A stretch of 61,496 nucleotides of DNA, taken from UHGV virus genome UHGV-0350099, one strand, 5' to 3'. The position numbers and the translations under genes are program-made. The notes under the pieces were generated by a model. It had not been told where the DNA came from, ran no database searches, and saw only the letters and a list, made by a program, of their open reading frames with translations. This document shows positions 1 to 35,483 of the stretch, piece after piece. Origin of the DNA: a virus. Within the stretch, counting starts at the first letter, position 1, and each line of letters begins with the position of its first letter.

Positions 1-3000
1 GCGTCGTCTGCCAGTGCCGCGTCAACAAGTGCCGGGCAGGCCTCAGCCAGTGCCACCGCCGCCGGAAAATCGGCAGAAAGCGCCGCATCATCCGCTTCAA
101 CAGCCACAACGAAGGCTGGCGAAGCCACTGAACAGGCCAGCGCAGCAGCGAGGTCTGCTTCCGCAGCGAAGACATCCGAAACGAACGCGAAAGCGTCGGA
201 AACCCGTGCAGAATCCTCAAAAACGGCAGCCGCATCGTCCGCCAGTTCGGCAGCGTCATCGGCATCATCGGCGTCTGCTTCAAAAGATGAGGCGACCAGA
301 CAGGCGTCAGCAGCGAAGAGCAGCGCCACGACGGCATCCACGAAGGCGACAGAGGCAGCTGGCAGTGCGACGGCGGCAGCTCAGAGCAAAAGTACGGCGG
401 AATCCGCGGCAACGCGCGCCGAGACAGCAGCTAAACGGGCAGAGGATATTGCATCCGCCGTGGCGCTTGAGGATGCAAGTACGACGAAAAAGGGGATAGT
501 ACAGCTCAGCAGTGCGACCAACAGCACATCTGAAACGCTTGCCGCGACACCGAAGGCAGTTAAAGCAGCGAATGACAATGCGAATGGCAGGGTACCATCT
601 AACCGAAAAGTTAACGGGAAAGCACTGACTGCGGATATAACATTAACACCGAAAGATATTGGCACTTTAAATTCAGTAACGATCTCTTTCTCTGGCGGGG
701 CAGGGTGGTTCAAACTGGCAACGGTTACCATGCCACAAGCGAGTTCCATCGTTTACATCGCATTGATTGGTGGCGCTGGTTACAACGTCGGCTCCCCACA
801 TCAGGCAGGCATTTCAGAACTGGTTCTACGAGCAGGCAATGGAAACCCCAAAGGGATTACAGGTGCTTTGTGGAAGCGTACAGCTGTCGGATTAACGAAT
901 TTCGCCTGGATCAACACATCCGGCGATACATATGATATTTACGTTGAGATTGGCAATTATGCGACTAGTGTAAATATCCATTGGGATTGTACTGCAAATG
1001 CGACAGTTTCTATTTATACATCGCCAACATATTCAGCGAGTAAGCCTTCCAGCGTTACCGATGGTGTTGTTTATACGATGTATAGCACACATCAGAAACC
1101 GACGCCGTTAGATATTGGAGCACTGCCAACAACCGGAGGAACAGTTTCAGGTCCGTTGTCTGTTACAGGTGGATTAACTGGTTCATTGAATGGTAATGCA
1201 AGTACAGCCACGAAATTGCAGACGGCAAGATCTATCGGTGGAGTTGTTTTCGACGGTTCTGCAAATATTAACCTTCCAGGTGTAAACACTACGGGTAATC
1301 AGAACACCACTGGTAATGCTGCAACTGCTACAAAACTACAGACAGCGCGTACAATCAACGGTGTTAAGTTTGATGGTTCTGCGGACATAACGCTGACTCC
1401 TGCGAACCTTGACGTATACAGCAAAAGCGAAATAGACAATAAAAAAGGGATGAGAAAATACACTTTTTCAGCGCCTGCAAATGCAGTAAGCGGTAAGTGG
1501 TATCCTATAGTCTTTCGCCGATCTGGAGGCAGTACCGATGAATTAGCCTCACGAGTTGTGATAACTACTTATTCCTCAGCTGGCGGATACGCCATGAATA
1601 ATTGTGAATTTAATGGGTTTGTTATGCCTGGCGGTTGGTCTGATCGCGGTTCATATGCGGCTGGTTTTTTCTCAATATATTCTACTGCTGAGCGAGCTAT
1701 ACACTCGATTATTTCAAGTGTGAAAGATGACGATTTGTGTAGTGTATTTTACGTTGAAGCCAGAGCATTCCCTATCAAGATATTTGCTGAGGAGGGCTTG
1801 AACGTAATTGTTCCAACGGCTGATTATGCAGTTGGTCAAACCACTTATAAGTGGGGGGCAACTGATCCTTTATCAGAAAGTACGAATGCACAGATAATTT
1901 TGGACTTTAAAAATGGACGAGGTTATTACTGTTCACATCCATTTATTTCAAGTCTTTCAGGAAATGCTGCTACAGCAACGAAATTGCAGACTGCAAGAAC
2001 TATCGGCGGCGTGGCCTTCGATGGATCTGCGAACATAAATTTGCCTGGTGTAAACACGGCAGGTAATCAGAATACAACGGGCAACGCGGCTACTGCTACG
2101 AAGTTGCAAACAGCGAGAAACATCAATGGTGTTAAGTTTGATGGCTCAGGCGATATCAACATTAATACACTGGTATCTCGTGGCCAAGTTACGGCGTTAA
2201 GTGGCTCTACTCAGGGTACTGCTGGTATTCAAATGTATGAAGCATATAGCAATAATTACCCAACATCATTCGGCAATGTTCTGCATATGAAAGGGGCGAG
2301 TGCTGCTGGTGAGGGCGAGTTGCTTATTGGCTGGAGTGGTACAAGCGGTGCTCATGCTCCGGTTTATGTTCGTTCACGCCGTGATACTTCGACAGCGAAC
2401 TGGTCTGGCTGGGCGCAGATCTACACAACTGCTCATAAACCCACAGCGAAAGATGTTGGGGCCGCGCAAGCGTTTAGCGCGTCTTACAGCACAGGGGCTG
2501 GCAATTGGACTACCGCTGAATTTATCGCATGGCTGAAGGAGCGTGGTGCTTTCGAAGTGCCGTACTGGATGATGAAGGGTTCCTGGTCATATGCCGACAA
2601 TAAAATTATCACTGATACAGGTGTCGGCAATATTTGTCTTGCTGGTGCGGTTATCGAGGTTTTAGGTCACGAAGGCGCAATGACCATCCGAGTTACTACG
2701 CCTACAACGACAACCGGTGGTGGGATTGCCAGTGCTCAGTTCACCTATATTAATCACGGTAGCGCGTATGCCCCTGCCTGGCGCAGAGATTACAACACTG
2801 CTCTCAAACCTACTGCGGCTGATGTCGGTGCGCTGCCGATTTCTGGCGGGACAATGAATGGTGTGCTGACGCTGCAAAATGTGAGTCAGCCTCTCAAGAC
2901 GCCGGGTGGCGGCATTCTGGCAAATGATGGAAATTTATACATCAATAAGTCAGGATTTGCAGGCTGGATTGATGCGCTGTTTTTGAAGAACAGCGGCGGT

Positions 3001-6400: not shown

Positions 6401-6922
6401 TTATTCTTCGAACAATTTTTCGATAGATTTTGTTGGATAGAACAAAGAACGATCGTTGTTACCAACCAGCTGGATAAAGCCCAAACTTTTATAAAACGCC
6501 CTGGCTTTATCGTTCAACGCCTCAACGAAAAGCCCATGAATGCCTACCGCAAGAGATGCATTGTACACAACACGCATTGCGTGAGTTACAAGCATTGAGC
6601 CAAGCCCCTGACCTTGAAGAGATTTGTCCAAAGCCAGTCTGCCTAAAGTGATACTTGGGACATTCCGATAAGGCACTTTCTTTTGCTGACTCTTTGAAGG
6701 TAAGGTTTCTTTCTCAAAGCAGCTGCCTGACAAAGTGTAATAACCTAATACCTTTGGTATTTCTTCTTTAGTGCAAAGCACATAAGCGCGAAGAATTTTT
6801 CCTTCATGCTGTCTTTTTAAGTGGTTGGTCAAAAATGCGTTTAGTGACTCTTCGCCGCAATCAAAACCGTTTAGATCATAATCGTTCTCTCCAGAGAAAA
6901 TCTCGATCGTCGTATTGCTCAC
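6401..6922 (-). CDS. GNAT-family acetyltransferase toxin (TacT-like)
   Basis: 173 aa; acetyl-CoA motif LGRLALDKSLQGQGLGSML; immediately downstream of a DUF1778-type small protein on same strand. Confidence 0.7.
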   Translation of the reverse strand: MSNTTIEIFSGENDYDLNGFDCGEESLNAFLTNHLKRQHEGKILRAYVLCTKEEIPKVLGYYTLSGSCFEKETLPSKSQQKKVPYRNVPSITLGRLALDKSLQGQGLGSMLVTHAMRVVYNASLAVGIHGLFVEALNDKARAFYKSLGFIQLVGNNDRSLFYPTKSIEKLFEE

Positions 6923-6929
6923 GAGTAAA

Positions 6930-7199
6930 TTACTCCATGCTTTTCAGACGATTGGCAGCTCGTTTCAGCTTGTCGTTCGGTGCCGGAGGATTGCTTATAG
7001 CATCCATAACCAGATTCCAGGACTCTTCACTTAGAACCAGTCTACGGTGTTGCTCTATCACCTTCACGGCACGTTCGGATGCACTGCTAACCATGAACTG
7101 GGTAATGCTCTGGTTAGACATTGCGGCAGCTTCCTCGATGATGCTTTTATCGTCATCGGTTAATCTCAAATCGATGCGCTGCTTTTTCAGTGCGGACAT
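6930..7199 (-). CDS. RHH/DUF1778-type antitoxin (TacA-like)
   Basis: 89 aa; RIDLRLTDDDKSIIEEAAAMSNQSITQFM pattern typical of DUF1778 antitoxins; 7-nt gap to GNAT gene. Confidence 0.7.
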   Translation of the reverse strand: MSALKKQRIDLRLTDDDKSIIEEAAAMSNQSITQFMVSSASERAVKVIEQHRRLVLSEESWNLVMDAISNPPAPNDKLKRAANRLKSME

Positions 7200-8546: not shown

Positions 8547-8558
8547 TATAAATCTCTA

Positions 8559-8594
8559 AGGCTGGTCTGCATTGGACAGCCTTAGAAATATTTC
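8559..8594. terminator. Hairpin between convergent genes (bidirectional terminator candidate)
   Basis: TAAGGCTG-N12-CAGCCTTA inverted repeat between parB-like (+) and 8607-9680 (-). Confidence 0.35.
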
Positions 8595-8606
8595 GTTCTA
8601 TGAAAG

Positions 8607-9680
8607 CTATTCGTAGTTAAGCTCACCGAACAGACTGAACATCAAGTCACCATCCAAAATTTCAAAGGGCAACTCGACATACTCATCCTTATGTCTCGGA
8701 ATTGCGTTGCCGTCGTTAGGGGCATTCTTGGTATAACCTTTTACATGTTTACCGTTTTCTTTTGTATACGGCAGCACGACAATTCGACCGTGATTTTTTG
8801 AAATGATAGTTCCTTCTTTCCAGAGCGTATTGCCTCTTGAGGTGGTTTCGCTTTCGCTAGCAACTTTAACACTCCAACCTACCTGATTTTTGTCCTCAAA
8901 CCAGAAAACAAAGTTGCCAACAACCAGTACCTTTTGCCCATTCCTGAGAGCTTCATCCAGCATTCTTTTTACGCTGGCGAGTTGCAGTAACCGGTTAGCA
9001 CGCGGCAGAAGCATTGAGCGAATAGTCGCTTTTGTTTTTCCCCAATGTGCAGCGCCTGATAAACCAAAACCTCTGGCTATGCGTTCTTGGTAGCAGATCT
9101 TCGCTGTCTTAGCTTTGTTGTTATATGAACATTCCCAAGTGTTAGGAGCAACGAGTTGAAGTGAAACTTGGAATTTGGGAAGAAAAACAAAATGTAAGTA
9201 AGGCATCTCGCTTAGCACGTCAAAAAGGGGTTGACGCAAAGTTTCGTAATCTGGGTTAATTATTAACTCATTTAATGTCACTCGCGGATCGTTGGCGTGT
9301 GCCTTAATTGCTTCGTTGAGCATTATATGCTCTTCATCCATGAGACGTGATTTGGCTTTGAGTGCTTTGTCAACTTTCAAACGCAATGACTTCTTTTGAA
9401 ACATAGATAGAGGAAGTTTTTCAATGTCAAAGCTCACGTTTTTATTCAGCTCTAATGCCGCTTTTCTTGCTTCAGGATAGTTATCGTAGTCGTCATCAAA
9501 AGCGTGGTTTGGCATACCACGATCAACATATCGCCGATACCAAGCAAGGGTTCCATCATTACGGAGTTTCAGACAGAACATCGACCATTTATTCCGTTCA
9601 TATTTAGGCTGAGGCCAAAAAGCCAGTTCGGGAAGGCCATATCCTGGAAGTCTATTCATGCGCATGGTGACAATATCCAC
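8607..9680 (-). CDS. Hypothetical protein in AT-rich accessory segment
   Basis: 357-aa ORF on minus strand; lower GC than flanking replication genes; no motif recognised. Confidence 0.5.
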   Translation of the reverse strand: MDIVTMRMNRLPGYGLPELAFWPQPKYERNKWSMFCLKLRNDGTLAWYRRYVDRGMPNHAFDDDYDNYPEARKAALELNKNVSFDIEKLPLSMFQKKSLRLKVDKALKAKSRLMDEEHIMLNEAIKAHANDPRVTLNELIINPDYETLRQPLFDVLSEMPYLHFVFLPKFQVSLQLVAPNTWECSYNNKAKTAKICYQERIARGFGLSGAAHWGKTKATIRSMLLPRANRLLQLASVKRMLDEALRNGQKVLVVGNFVFWFEDKNQVGWSVKVASESETTSRGNTLWKEGTIISKNHGRIVVLPYTKENGKHVKGYTKNAPNDGNAIPRHKDEYVELPFEILDGDLMFSLFGELNYE

Positions 9681-9922
9681 GAGGCTAAAACACTGATTCT
9701 AACATGATCTCCCTTGATAAATCTGTCAATGACATAGCATCTGGGGTTGGAGTCAAATTATGTTGTTCTTGGTATCCATTAGGAGCCTGTTTCTGTATAT
9801 AAATAATAAGTAACTTATTAAATATATACGGAAGCAGGTCTTTTAAAAGACACCACCAGACCAACTCCCTTCCGTTTTCACTTCCAAAAACTGACACCAG
9901 TCGCTATCATCCGTTCATTGTG

Positions 9923-18309: not shown

Positions 18310-18352
18310 GCAACTGAAAGAGTCAAGTCTACGAACTTTGTAGGAAGAAATA

Positions 18353-18703
18353 ATGACCAGCAAAGATAACACACCACTAAAAGTCACCCCTGAACACATT
18401 GAACAACTCATTCAAAGTGAACATTATTTCACTGCATATGATGCCAGCCACGGGGATAACTTCATCTCCGTTTACAATTCAAAAACAGATATCGACAAAT
18501 GTCATGAGTCGTTAAAACTCTTAACGTTCTGCGTTATGGTTCTCAAAAATGGATATACCGTAACGGGAAAATCTGCGTGCGTAAGACCAGAAATCTTCAA
18601 CTTTGATGTTGGTCGCGAGTACGCTCGAAAAGATGCTATCGATCAAATCTGGCCCCTGGAAGGCTATCTCCTGAAGCAAAAGTGGCATGAGGCAAAGCAA
18701 TGA
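18353..18703 (+). CDS. Hypothetical protein
   Basis: 116-aa ORF; no motif recognised. Confidence 0.45.
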   Translation: MTSKDNTPLKVTPEHIEQLIQSEHYFTAYDASHGDNFISVYNSKTDIDKCHESLKLLTFCVMVLKNGYTVTGKSACVRPEIFNFDVGREYARKDAIDQIWPLEGYLLKQKWHEAKQ

Positions 18704-28644: not shown

Positions 28645-28860
28645 TCAGCTTAGAGCAACGACATTTGCTGCTGCTGGGCCTTTAGCACCATTCTCGATAG
28701 AGAATTCGACCTGCTGGCCTTCTTCCAAAGTGCGGAAATTATTACTCTGAATTGCCGAAAAATGTACAAAAACATCTTTACTGCCATCAGCAGGAGAAAT
28801 AAAGCCAAAGCCTTTATCAGAGTTAAACCATTTTACTAAACCAGTCATTTTATTAGACAT
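28645..28860 (-). CDS. cspA: Cold-shock protein, CspA family
   Basis: [38 protein letters not shown]... with RNP motifs KGFGFI and VFVHF; start trimmed to MSNK. Confidence 0.9.
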
Positions 28861-29075: not shown

Positions 29076-29189
29076 TTTATTTTTCAAAGATAACTAATTT
29101 TTGTCACCATTGGTTTAGTAAACGTTAACGAACCAGACGATGCCAGACACCTTTACAGAGAACAGATGCCCGCCAATTGGCGGGCATCA

Positions 29190-29753
29190 TTATGCGCATT
29201 TCGCAATATCTTTGCGGCGTTTAATCAGTTTCTCCGCAATTTGCTCTATTTCGTTGAAATCTTTCGAGACGCTGTTTCGAAGCGCCAGATTCCATTTACT
29301 CAAAGTTCGGGCATTTTGGACAATTTGATCGCCCTCTTTAAGTCGTCCGTTATTCATGAGCCATTCAGCCACATCAGCCCAATCCCAGAGAGGAGACTGG
29401 CCTTTTATGCGTTGTACAGGGCAAGGGAAGTCGCCGCTTCCGCGCTTACCGTCTTTGAGCAACGCCACTGCCTGGCGAGACAGGTCTGTCAGTTCCGCGA
29501 TATCGCTTAAGCCCACAAGAGCCGAGTCGACGGATTCAACAATTGCACCGATACCGGCTGATTCAATATTGTCGACCGCAGATGCGATAGCTGCATCAAG
29601 TGATTGTGCTTCGCGGTCAAATTCTACATAGACGGAGTTTCCATATGCGCAAATTAGCGCATCGTCACAGCCGTTTTGGTACAGCGCGTCTTCCAGTCCT
29701 TCCGTCTCATACGATACGCCTGAGAGCGTCAGAGTGAAGTTATAAAGCGCCAT
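29190..29753 (-). CDS. Putative DNA-binding protein with HicB-like N-terminal fold (antitoxin-like)
   Basis: Start taken at MALYNFTLTL; N-terminal YxFTLTL...YVEF pattern and a C-terminal HTH-like segment; assignment is weak. Confidence 0.3.
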   Translation of the reverse strand: MALYNFTLTLSGVSYETEGLEDALYQNGCDDALICAYGNSVYVEFDREAQSLDAAIASAVDNIESAGIGAIVESVDSALVGLSDIAELTDLSRQAVALLKDGKRGSGDFPCPVQRIKGQSPLWDWADVAEWLMNNGRLKEGDQIVQNARTLSKWNLALRNSVSKDFNEIEQIAEKLIKRRKDIAKCA

Positions 29754-29813
29754 AGTTTTCCTTTGAAGATAGTTGGACAGTTTCTGCAAAAGGCGGCTAA
29801 TGCCGCCTTGAAA

Positions 29814-30038
29814 TCATTTACAACGATCAACCATTCGTTTGATCTGTTTGGCATGGTTTTCGGGATTACCCGGAGTCGACCATACGCTCATTTGGTGAGT
29901 TTTGTGTTCACCTTCTGGATTACCGCATCGCAGTCTGCAAAAACAATGTGCAGCACCACCAGCTGCTACCCAGATCCAGCCTTTACTTAATGCATAGTCA
30001 ATGGCTGCTTGAATATGCTTATTCGGATGTTGCTTCAT
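29814..30038 (-). CDS. Small Cys/His-containing protein upstream of the HicB-like gene
   Basis: 74 aa, HCFCRLRC...H..H motif; first gene of a two-gene minus-strand cassette. Confidence 0.35.
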   Translation of the reverse strand: MKQHPNKHIQAAIDYALSKGWIWVAAGGAAHCFCRLRCGNPEGEHKTHQMSVWSTPGNPENHAKQIKRMVDRCK

Positions 30039-30292
30039 TCGCCTCCGATAATAGTATTCTATTCACAGTGTTGACATCTGTCAACGGCGACTGAATTTCA
30101 TCCGTTCATGCCACACCCCCATCCATCTCATGTATGTGACCTAAAGATGGTCAGCACAGCTTACCAAAATAAGACAACTAATTATCTTCGGTGATCTCAA
30201 TATTTTCCCCTGAACAAAGTTGACATGACGCCATAAACCCGTTCTCTGTTTGATATAATTGATACAGATTTTATAAGTAGGAACCTATTAGA

Positions 30293-33143: not shown

Positions 33144-35483
33144 ATGGCAAAAGGAAAATCCGCACTGGCACTTGCTCTGAAAAAGAAAATCGGTAGCAAC
33201 GACGAAATTCAGAAAGTAACTCATTGGATTGATACAGGCTTTCCACCGTTAAACAAAGCTATTTCTGGTCGTTACGATGGCGGCTTCCCATGTGGTCGTA
33301 TCGTCGAAGTATTCGGTCCACCAAGCGCGGGGAAATGTGTTACCGCAGACACCATGCTGCTGACGGAGCGTGGAATGGTAACAGTGAAAGAGTTGTTTGA
33401 GATTGAAGGGTACAAAGCGACATGCACTACTCGCGATGTAGAGCATAACGTTGGACTCATCAATGAAAATGGCGTGATAGAGAAGACCTCACACCTGACA
33501 TGGAACAACCGTCGCAAATTCAAGCGTATTAAGCTGGCATCAGGCGGTTATATCGAGGCTACGTTCCGTCACCCAATCCGTGTGGTTGACGACTTAGGTA
33601 ATGTCGTCTGGCGACATGCTGAAAAAATCAGTGTAGGCGACACGATTCCTTCAATGGTTGGCACACATCAATTCGGCGATCAGCACCTGGATGCCAATAT
33701 CGCAAAACTGATGGGCTATTTAATTGCTGACGGATACGTGGCCTCTGAAAATTCAGTGAATTTTTCTAACACAGATCCTTTCATCAAGGATGAGTACTAC
33801 CGCCTCATTTCGCTGGTATCAGACAAGATGCCAGTTGCGAGAAAACATAACGGCTCGGAAGACCATGTGCTGTTTAGCAAAGAGGTGCGTTCGCTGCTTT
33901 TTAAAGAATATGGTCTGGAGTATGAGAAAGCTGCTGGCAAGCAGGTTCCGTTGAGTGTGCGTCGCGCCAATAGCGAGGCTCAAATTGCATTCCTTCGCGG
34001 CTACTTTGAGCTGGAATGCCACGTCAATGATGGTCGCTGCATTGAGGTTGTGAGCGCGAGTGGGCTGCTGCTACAGCAAATTCGCCTCATGCTCCTGAAT
34101 CTGGGGATTACGTCAACTATCTCTGAAAAACACGTCGCGGGTTATGAAAATACATATTACCGGCTGTCATTCAGTGGCTCTAATTACGACCTTTTTCTGT
34201 CAACGATTGGTTTCGAATCTCCGGCACGTTTATCAGTGGCAACCAAACGGGACATTGGTTTTGACCGCACTTACTCAGGCTATGTTCCGCACATCAGCGG
34301 CTTAGTGAAATCACTCTACGAGTCGCTCACCAAGACCACCCGTGAAGACTACGCTCTGGTAGACCACGTTATTGGCCGCGGCGATCGTGTCGGAATAGAC
34401 AAACTGCGAGAAATCTATGTCTCCTTCATTGGCAGAAAGAATCGTTTTAACGAGCATCTGTTTGCACAACTGGCAGCGGTAATTGGCTCTAACTTGTTCT
34501 ACGACGAAGTCGTGGCTATTGAGGAAGGTGAAGCACCAACGTTCGACGTAGCGATGCCGGAAACACACTCTTTCTGGTCTAACGGGATTATCAGCCACAA
34601 CACATTCCTTGCAACAGCAGCGATGATCTCCGCTCAAAAACAAGATGGTCTGGCGGTATTCCTCGATCATGAAAACAGTTTTGACGTTGGCCTGGCTGTA
34701 GCCAATGGCCTGAACGCAGATGAGGATGACGGTCAGTGGGTATACAAGCAGCCAGATACCTTCGAAGACTCTGTAGAGTTGATCGGCACAATACTTAAAT
34801 TGGTTCGTGATGAAGAGCTTATCCCCGAATCAGCACCTATCTGTATCGTGGCTGACTCTCTTGCGTCTATGGTTCCGAACTCCAAAGCCGAGAAGTTCGA
34901 AAAGATGGCTGAAGGCACAGCCAAAGACAAAGATCAGCTAAACATGAACGACAATACGGCACTGGCTCGTGCGACGAGTGCGAACTTCCCTACTCTGGCT
35001 TTGTGGGCACGCAAATACAACGCCTGCATCATCTTCTTGAATCAGGTTCGCACAAAAATCGGTGTAATGTTTGGCGACCCTACTACGTCGCCAGGTGGAG
35101 ATTCACCGAAGTTTTACGCTTCTGTGCGTATCCGTCTTGGTGCATCGGTGATGAAGGATGGTAAAGAGAAGATCGGCCAGGACGTAGGCGCAGAATGCAT
35201 CAAAAACAAAGTTGCACCACCGTATGGCAAATGCACCTGGAAATTCTACTTCGATCCTACTCGTGGCCTCGACGTTATCGAATCGCTCGTCGAGTACATG
35301 CTGGAAGAAGGATACCTGCCAAAGAACGCCAGCGGGCGAGTTGAAATTGGTGACAAGAAATACACCAAATCGCAGATCGTCGAGATGTATCGGGAGAAGC
35401 CACTGGCTGAAATCATTGCGGCTTTGCAGGCAATCGACGACCGAAGAGCAAAAGACAACCCCACCGAGTCAGTAGAAGAGTAA
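33144..35483 (+). CDS. recA: RecA-like recombinase interrupted by an intein
   Basis: Exteins: GRIVEVFGPPSAGK|...|TFLATAAM, AVFLDHENSFD, CIVADSLASMVP, IFLNQVRTKIGVMFGDPTTSPGGDSPKFYASVRIRLG match RecA core motifs. Confidence 0.85.
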   Translation: MAKGKSALALALKKKIGSNDEIQKVTHWIDTGFPPLNKAISGRYDGGFPCGRIVEVFGPPSAGKCVTADTMLLTERGMVTVKELFEIEGYKATCTTRDVEHNVGLINENGVIEKTSHLTWNNRRKFKRIKLASGGYIEATFRHPIRVVDDLGNVVWRHAEKISVGDTIPSMVGTHQFGDQHLDANIAKLMGYLIADGYVASENSVNFSNTDPFIKDEYYRLISLVSDKMPVARKHNGSEDHVLFSKEVRSLLFKEYGLEYEKAAGKQVPLSVRRANSEAQIAFLRGYFELECHVNDGRCIEVVSASGLLLQQIRLMLLNLGITSTISEKHVAGYENTYYRLSFSGSNYDLFLSTIGFESPARLSVATKRDIGFDRTYSGYVPHISGLVKSLYESLTKTTREDYALVDHVIGRGDRVGIDKLREIYVSFIGRKNRFNEHLFAQLAAVIGSNLFYDEVVAIEEGEAPTFDVAMPETHSFWSNGIISHNTFLATAAMISAQKQDGLAVFLDHENSFDVGLAVANGLNADEDDGQWVYKQPDTFEDSVELIGTILKLVRDEELIPESAPICIVADSLASMVPNSKAEKFEKMAEGTAKDKDQLNMNDNTALARATSANFPTLALWARKYNACIIFLNQVRTKIGVMFGDPTTSPGGDSPKFYASVRIRLGASVMKDGKEKIGQDVGAECIKNKVAPPYGKCTWKFYFDPTRGLDVIESLVEYMLEEGYLPKNASGRVEIGDKKYTKSQIVEMYREKPLAEIIAALQAIDDRRAKDNPTESVEE
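33336..34601 (+). mobile_element. Intein (422 aa) with LAGLIDADG homing endonuclease, inserted in the RecA P-loop
   Basis: Begins with Cys right after GPPSAGK, ends HN followed by Thr; LAGLIDADG-like LMGYLIADGYV and FLRGYFELECHV. Confidence 0.8.

Follow-up and report, generated by a model that had tools for sequence, protein, structure and literature searches.

Which kind of two-gene system is encoded on the minus strand at 29190-30038 of the virus genome UHGV-0350099? The window (the whole stretch of DNA analysed, 61,496 nucleotides) was identified as an SSU5-type Escherichia coli phage-plasmid. A preliminary description, made from the letters alone, had placed here a small Cys/His protein followed by a HicB-like DNA-binding protein, organized as in hicAB-type toxin–antitoxin (TA) modules with the small gene first. 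Both open reading frames (ORFs) are present at these positions, and they are ordered as in a type II TA operon with the toxin gene first; the limits given for the cassette hold for the two genes and leave out the promoter and operator (30056-30085) and the terminator (29165-29188), which lie outside. On comparative-genomic grounds, the region is, on balance, probably a self-contained, autoregulated TA-like two-gene module of the phage-plasmid. The two genes are referred to here as A and B.

29814-30038, minus strand: gene A, 74 residues, candidate toxin; PADLOC PDC-M06A; phrog_5923.
29190-29753, minus strand: gene B, 187 residues, candidate antitoxin and autorepressor; PADLOC PDC-M06B; phrog_2620.

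The start of gene B was set at the ATG at 29753 (MALYNF...), which is common to all homologues; the mechanical ORF from the TTG at 29789 has 199 residues. Gene A matches phrog_5923 (3e-49) and gene B matches phrog_2620 (2e-105). The homologues of A form 55 clusters at 90% identity and 722 representative clusters at 50% identity, and those of B form 273 clusters at 90% identity. For A the median pairwise ratio of nonsynonymous to synonymous substitution rates (dN/dS) is 0.15, and for B it is 0.10. Over the 1.5 kb surrounding the cassette the window shares 99.7% identity with Escherichia phage Cyrano (pLF82), and in the Cyrano/LF82 lysogen the transcripts of A and B stand at 30x and 14x the prophage background, respectively (PMC9928086). 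Taken together, the PHROG matches, the numbers of homologues, the low dN/dS values and the transcription in the lysogen indicate that A and B are genuine genes rather than chance ORFs.

The pairing of the two genes was assessed in two sets of loci: a search with a B alignment, taking one genome per species, gave 80 loci, and a search of viral contigs with a narrower A-family alignment gave 62. In the great majority of the 80 B-found loci B is directly preceded by A on its own strand; 66 loci have both genes intact, 12 have a missing or damaged A next to an intact B and two have both genes degraded. All 62 A-found viral loci have a B-type gene immediately downstream, among them one with a nonsense mutation in A (L132), one with a 5'-truncated B (L107) and one with a split architecture (L148). 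Distant relatives of A from high-GC sequences are likewise followed by a B-like gene. The decay of the pair is strongly asymmetric. Gene A has been inactivated beside an intact B in 13 loci by independent events, comprising three nonsense mutations, three frameshifts, at least four deletions and three absences; some of these losses are precise internal deletions that leave MKK... or MKKHPNKEIQ... remnants. The reverse case, with B disrupted and A intact, was found in one locus, although B is 2.5 times longer and presents the larger mutational target. Asymmetric loss of this kind, in which loss of the toxin is tolerated and loss of the antitoxin is not, is a signature of TA pairs, and 13 losses of A against one of B are what a harmful free A and a protective B would be expected to produce. 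The same asymmetry is also compatible with a dispensable A that is accessory to B. Apparent in-frame stops in B at two further loci were rejected as disruptions, as they are natural C-termini.

The control signals of the cassette, all read from the window, are as follows.

30056-30084, minus strand: sigma-70-type promoter of the A–B operon, with TTGACA at 30084-30079, a 17-nt spacer and TAGAAT at 30061-30056.
30070-30085, no strand assigned: putative operator, a perfect palindrome (GTTGACAGATGTCAAC) with 6-bp arms and a 4-bp variable spacer, overlapping the -35 element.
30042-30046, minus strand: Shine-Dalgarno sequence of gene A, GGAGG, from direct reading.
29788-29809, minus strand: intergenic hairpin (AAGGCGGC-ATTA-GCCGCCTT) with an 8-bp GC stem followed by UU(G), 5 nt past the stop of A.
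29165-29188, minus strand: intrinsic terminator-like hairpin (GATGCCCGCC-AATT-GGCGGGCATC) of ten pairs, eight of them G-C, directly past the stop of B.

In a consensus scan the promoter matches at 11 of 12 positions, and related loci carry a -35/-10 pair at the same position relative to A, mostly with GGAGG as the ribosome-binding sequence of this gene. The -35 element lies inside the palindrome, which has the pattern GTTGAC-N4-GTCAAC; the right arm is dispensable for promoter function, yet it is conserved as strongly as the left arm. The exact palindrome occurs in 74 of 82 related loci (with two copies in one of them), and the spacer and flanks are not conserved. In every case it closely precedes A or, as at five loci from which A has been deleted, stands directly before B. 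Allowing up to one mismatch, it is the sole match in the window, where 0.12 would be expected by chance, and also the sole match on NZ_CP020118.1, a near-identical 111-kb plasmid with an identical cassette. From this arrangement we infer that a dimer of B would bind the palindrome and repress its own operon. Since the palindrome is unique on the 111-kb plasmid, the predicted regulon of B is its own operon, and for this reason the idea that B regulates the phage-plasmid at large was rejected. The locus thus combines adjacent co-oriented genes, a promoter and terminator of their own, a DNA-binding domain in the predicted antitoxin and a palindrome over the operon promoter, as is general for type II TA operons. 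Two side observations concern this upstream region. An Enterobacter pulveris locus (L041, 5651-5688) has a tandem pair of GTTGAC-N4-GTCAAC operators upstream of A. In nine loci (L003 among them) a conserved GGCCGTAGACAG is located about 45-55 bp upstream of the operator; it resembles the left arm of the operator with its flank (GCCGTTGACAG), does not occur in the window and could be an auxiliary half-site or a boundary of the cassette.

The intergenic hairpin resembles a terminator or an attenuator. Hairpins at or below -8 kcal/mol, directly past the stop of A, are present in 59 of 88 unique A–B spacers, many of them followed by a U-run, and no hairpin is present in the remaining 29 spacers, which measure 0-35 nt. 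In a subclade of 18 sequences, compensatory changes are found at 8 of 11 pairs. Attenuation by this hairpin, if real, would account for the 30:14 ratio of the A and B transcripts. In loci of the L003 type, a conserved tandem GAATACT-CT-GAATACT, not found in the window, lies between the hairpin and the ribosome-binding site of B and might serve as a weak promoter or as a binding site.

Protein A contains four Cys residues (C32, C34, C38 and C73) and six His residues (H4, H8, H31, H45, H48 and H62), in keeping with its initial description as a small Cys/His protein. Its AlphaFold2 (AF2) model has a predicted local distance difference test score (pLDDT) of 88.7 and consists of a helix (residues 7-18), two strands (22-25 and 32-37), a short helix (43-47), a third strand (49-53) and a C-terminal helix (59-72). 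The predicted topology, α1-β1-β2-β3-α2 with the short helix before β3, is that of the HicA-type fold resembling a double-stranded RNA-binding domain. Among 89 diverse members of the A family the near-invariant residues are H4, W21, H31, C38, C/H48, T55, P56, A63 and C73; H31, which directly precedes β2, is conserved in 85 members, H62 is kept in 72 and position 48 is Cys in 73 and His in 10. A swap of Cys and His at a single position is typical of metal ligands, and the conservation pattern suggests that A may be a metal-binding protein, with zinc as the probable metal. By strand register, C38, C/H48 and C73 are predicted to lie together at one end of the sheet, and the topology would bring H4, H31 and H62 together at the opposite end, where the catalytic His of HicA is located. 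H31 could alternatively be a metal ligand.

Likeness to HicA is limited to the predicted topology and to a few local features. Neither A nor B had a significant match in Pfam or NCBIfam. With E values of up to 10 allowed, none of the 44 close and 89 diverse members of the A family matched PF07927 (HicA_toxin), no NCBIfam HicA model matched A, and neither a profile search of PDB sequences with A nor a Foldseek search of the A model against the PDB gave anything significant or any HicA. The hhalign comparison of the A family with a 36-sequence PF07927 alignment reached a probability of 24.6% over 23 columns (the segment α1-GW-β1-turn-His) and that with a five-sequence HicA alignment reached 12%; values of 12% and 25% were rejected as proof of homology. 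In the hhalign register H31 is one residue off the His of the HicA Gly-Ser-His, in an alignment that is itself not significant. Compared with HicA, A shares the 'GW' junction after helix 1 and has, likewise, a conserved His just before β2; it differs in having no significant sequence or profile match to HicA and in carrying the metal-ligand-like C38, C/H48, C73, H4 and H62, which HicA lacks. A side observation of another kind is that 33 of the 44 close members give sub-threshold matches to Pfam RuBisCO_small (best 1.2e-4, under the 27-bit gathering cut-off). These were treated as spurious, being below the gathering score; a Shewanella homologue of A is labelled 'ribulose bisphosphate carboxylase small subunit' at NCBI, probably through misannotation.

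Protein B is divided into three parts.

29523-29753, minus strand: B residues 1-77, ferredoxin-like β-α-β-β-α-β domain in the AF2 model, proposed to bind A.
29349-29522, minus strand: B residues 78-135, AlpA/Xis-like winged helix–turn–helix (HTH) with the motif FPxPxxRxxGxSPLWxWxxVxxWL.
29196-29327, minus strand: B residues 143-186, helical hairpin of two long helices.

The N-terminal domain of HicB has a β-β-β-α-β, partial RNase H-like fold, which is combined with a C-terminal ribbon–helix–helix (RHH) or XRE domain. Neither part is seen in B. The HicB-like N-terminus and the C-terminal HTH proposed in the preliminary description are not supported, as the AF2 model gives a ferredoxin-like N-terminal domain instead, Pfam gives no HicB, RHH or XRE match in B or in 43 family members, and the HTH is central (about residues 78-135) and of the winged AlpA/Xis type, followed by the helical hairpin at the C-terminus. 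The doubt expressed there about HicA in the small protein was borne out by the searches above. Structure prediction and profile comparison of both proteins, one of the checks suggested at that stage, recovered a HicA-type topology for A; they gave no significant HicA match and no HicB fold for B. The closest structural neighbours of the N-terminal domain of B are the RAM and ACT ligand-sensing domains of Lrp/AsnC regulators. A sequence-profile search of the PDB with B gave nothing significant. The C-terminal helices (residues 143-162 and 166-186; pLDDT 85-92) are possibly a dimerization element. In a high-GC viral contig (L148, 3998-4877) A is followed by a stand-alone 85-residue protein corresponding to the ferredoxin-like N-terminal domain and then by a small HTH-like ORF; as the N-terminal domain still stands behind A after this split, it is the part of B that travels with A.

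The predicted DNA-binding part of B resembles AlpA and excisionase proteins. Its HTH matches the PHROG families annotated as 'excisionase and transcriptional regulator' (phrog_66, 2e-4; phrog_2790, 1e-3), and Pfam PF05930 (Phage_AlpA) is found below threshold in 10 of 43 B-family members, with a best E of 0.025. An hhalign comparison of residues 78-135 with one AlpA-family protein covers the whole HTH, including the FP..(x)..G.S..W...V..W motif (55 columns, E 4e-4, probability 34%). AF2 confidence is low at residues 105-122. The protein differs from AlpA/Xis in staying under the Pfam threshold, in its two extra domains, in having no adjoining integrase in the window and in its predicted site, which is found solely at its own promoter.

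In the mechanism that we infer for the TA-like module, which takes in A–B binding, B–operator binding and the toxicity, metal binding and cellular target of A, the strong promoter would drive A and then B. B would dimerize, probably via its C-terminal helical hairpin, and its AlpA/Xis-like winged HTH would bind GTTGAC-N4-GTCAAC over the -35 element, leading to self-repression of the operon. The ferredoxin-like N-terminal domain of B would bind and neutralize A, which would be a small protein of HicA-like fold that binds a metal, probably Zn, and is harmful when free, possibly as an RNase. Upon loss of the element or depletion of B, for example by another infecting phage, free A would arrest the cell, and the outcome may be plasmid addiction, abortive-infection defence or both.

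Several observations weigh against this mechanism. One viral locus (L107) carries an intact A with a 5'-truncated B. Orphan B genes remain intact, so that B may have a function of its own. The hairpin and the RNA-sequencing ratio (A at 30x, B at 14x) suggest more A than B transcript, which is unexpected for a toxin, and no convincing internal promoter for B was found downstream of the hairpin in a scan of the window and in related loci. Searches of the literature for PDC-M06, the protein accessions and the SSU5 locus tags found no functional study, and no enrichment of defence genes was found among the immediate chromosomal neighbours in 75 species-level loci.

The alternative that survives best concerns the role of the module and is compatible with a TA mechanism: the pair may serve chiefly in anti-phage abortive infection rather than in plasmid maintenance, which we hold as a tentative possibility. 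Both proteins match PADLOC models of PDC-M06, A with PDLC04383 (PDC-M06A) at 1.2e-19 and B with PDLC04388 (PDC-M06B) at 1.3e-32; gene order and strand are the same, and the cassette is a member by PADLOC's own criteria. PDC-M06 (CAS_00046, FAM_01986>>FAM_01364), with 497 RefSeq occurrences, is one of 145 candidates nominated for their occurrence within known defence systems (Payne et al., bioRxiv 10.1101/2024.01.29.577857). A defence role is further favoured by one setting of the pair in an integrase/primase island, adjoining a RelE/HTH pair, and by the moron-like expression from the prophage state. Against it, PDC systems are bioinformatic candidates only (bioRxiv 10.1101/2024.01.29.577857), and the present pair is located on a phage-plasmid backbone or, elsewhere, between core genes, not inside a defence system. 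Enrichment in defence islands was rejected because housekeeping neighbours (epimerase/DUF1731, GNAT, ABC transporter and Hda genes) predominate in the 75 loci. In a paper on a Klebsiella SSU5-like plasmid, defence is credited to a restriction–modification system and not to the A–B pair. The plasmid distribution points away from a chiefly anti-phage role: 315 of the 347 plasmid records with a B homologue are non-mobilizable, with sizes of mostly about 95-115 kb among the matches listed. For low-copy elements, addiction is an obvious benefit.

A rather unlikely alternative is that the pair is regulatory and non-toxic, with B an AlpA-like transcription factor carrying a RAM/ACT-type sensor and A a Zn-binding co-regulator or anti-repressor that needs B. 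The similarity of B to AlpA and excisionase proteins and the structural proximity of its N-terminal domain to the sensors of Lrp/AsnC regulators agree with this, as do the marginal HicA likeness of A, a transcript level of A that is at least that of B (PMC9928086) and the intact orphan B in 12 of 80 species; a dependence of A on B would also explain why A never occurs without a B-type partner. There is, moreover, a precedent in Shi of ICEclc, a HicA-derived growth-arrest factor that works with ParA and is non-toxic alone (PMC6812849). By description, Shi is similar to A in being small, with HicA-like secondary structure, diverged from the HicA family and located on a mobile element, and differs in having no DNA-binding partner. 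Since Shi is derived from HicA and yet is non-toxic alone, a HicA-like fold is no proof of RNase toxicity. Other observations argue against a purely regulatory pair. The sole operator on the 111-kb plasmid is the promoter of the pair itself, so that no wider regulon is visible; in many genomes the pair is a bare two-gene insertion between unrelated core genes, with no integrase or cargo to regulate; the repeated loss of A alone by nonsense mutation, frameshift and deletion fits counter-selection better than dispensability; and the cassette type was nominated for defence from its embedding in known defence systems. Least tenable is a genuine divergent hicAB operon, with A a HicA-family ribosome-independent mRNA interferase using the His before β2 and B its HicB: the HicA/HicB annotation in Cyrano (ENA OV696614), the toxin-first order and the local hhalign segment with near-invariant H31 speak for it, and yet we consider it very improbable in view of the missing PF07927, NCBIfam, PDB-profile and Foldseek matches, the pattern of C38, C/H48 and C73 (with H4 and H62) that is not in the HicA alignment, and a B with neither the HicB N-terminal fold nor an RHH or XRE domain.

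Thus, for the TA-like module, a HicAB assignment finds no support in B and only weak support in A. The resemblance to HicAB (HicA PF07927; PDB entries 6hpb, 6g26, 4p78 and 5yrz) lies in the small gene being followed by a larger partner with a DNA-binding domain and in the palindrome over the promoter, which suggests autoregulation of the cassette; in place of the HicB fold and the RHH or XRE domain, B has a ferredoxin-like N-terminal domain and an AlpA/Xis-type winged HTH with a helical hairpin. Public labels conflict ('HicA/HicB', 'AlpA family regulator', 'excisionase' and one 'RuBisCO small subunit') and are no evidence of function. The Cyrano record (ENA OV696614) has 'HicA toxin' and 'putative antitoxin HicB', and PGAP labels A as 'hypothetical' and B as 'HTH/AlpA family regulator', with some homologues of B as 'AlpA family'. 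The cassette is best described as a PDC-M06 family member with a HicA-like, metal-ligand-bearing small protein and an antitoxin architecture not described before. Of the initial suggestion of a divergent or new TA or regulatory pair, the departure from HicAB holds for B; novelty does not, as the pair is already annotated in ENA OV696614 and catalogued as PDC-M06, which makes it an uncharacterized variant rather than an undiscovered or new kind of system. It is conceivable, if doubtful, that A and B represent a novel TA superfamily, in which a metal-binding toxin that retains nothing of HicA but the scaffold is neutralized by a hitherto undescribed ferredoxin-like antitoxin domain fused to an AlpA-type repressor; such a module could be a major factor in the stable inheritance of the SSU5 group or in phage exclusion, and orphan B genes on chromosomes would then provide anti-addiction immunity. 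Should A prove to be a toxin, the pair would stand for a widespread TA or defence family in which neither protein has a Pfam model. Such a family would bring a new antitoxin architecture (ferredoxin-like domain with AlpA-type HTH) and a metal-binding protein related in fold to HicA, and the module could help to explain how low-copy, non-conjugative elements of roughly 100 kb persist.

SSU5-group phage-plasmids, including Yersinia pestis pMT1, carry the module as a conserved part of their backbone. The 1.5 kb around the cassette is 100% identical to at least 20 E. coli plasmids, whose sizes span 106-324 kb and mostly lie at about 106-126 kb. The isolated phages with the A–B pair are Cyrano and SSU5 only. 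The 347 plasmid records with a B homologue come from Escherichia, Enterobacter, Yersinia (pMT1), Citrobacter, Klebsiella and Cronobacter, and the prevailing size among the records listed is that of SSU5 and pMT1. In SSU5, pMT1 and the present element the pair occupies one fixed backbone slot (dnaE side/uvsY-like, ssb and exonuclease operon), and despite this common slot the cassette proteins are merely 57-80% identical. SSU5-type phage-plasmids are of clinical relevance and carry resistance genes in Enterobacterales, and it is at this fixed position that the cassette is found there. Chromosomal copies are bare two-gene insertions amid housekeeping genes; in a Morganella example the pair is located between a gene for an oppF-like oligopeptide ABC-transporter ATPase and a DUF440 gene, which is followed by a cls-like gene of phospholipase D type.

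Immediately downstream of gene B in the window is a cspG-like cold-shock gene (28645-28860, minus strand). SSU5 and Y. pestis pMT1 have a gene for a 141-residue hypothetical protein in its place, which makes the slot beside the cassette a variable one. Four stretches of the window (585-1398, 8550-9778, 18310-18687 and 33335-34599) have no counterpart at the same place in the near-identical plasmid NZ_CP020118.1 and appear to be variable regions of the phage-plasmid. The element also carries a second TA pair at 6401-7199 on the minus strand, consisting of a GNAT acetyltransferase toxin (6401-6922, 173 residues) and a DUF1778 antitoxin (6930-7199, 89 residues). In the Cyrano annotation this pair is given as KacT with its antitoxin, and it is likewise expressed in the lysogen.

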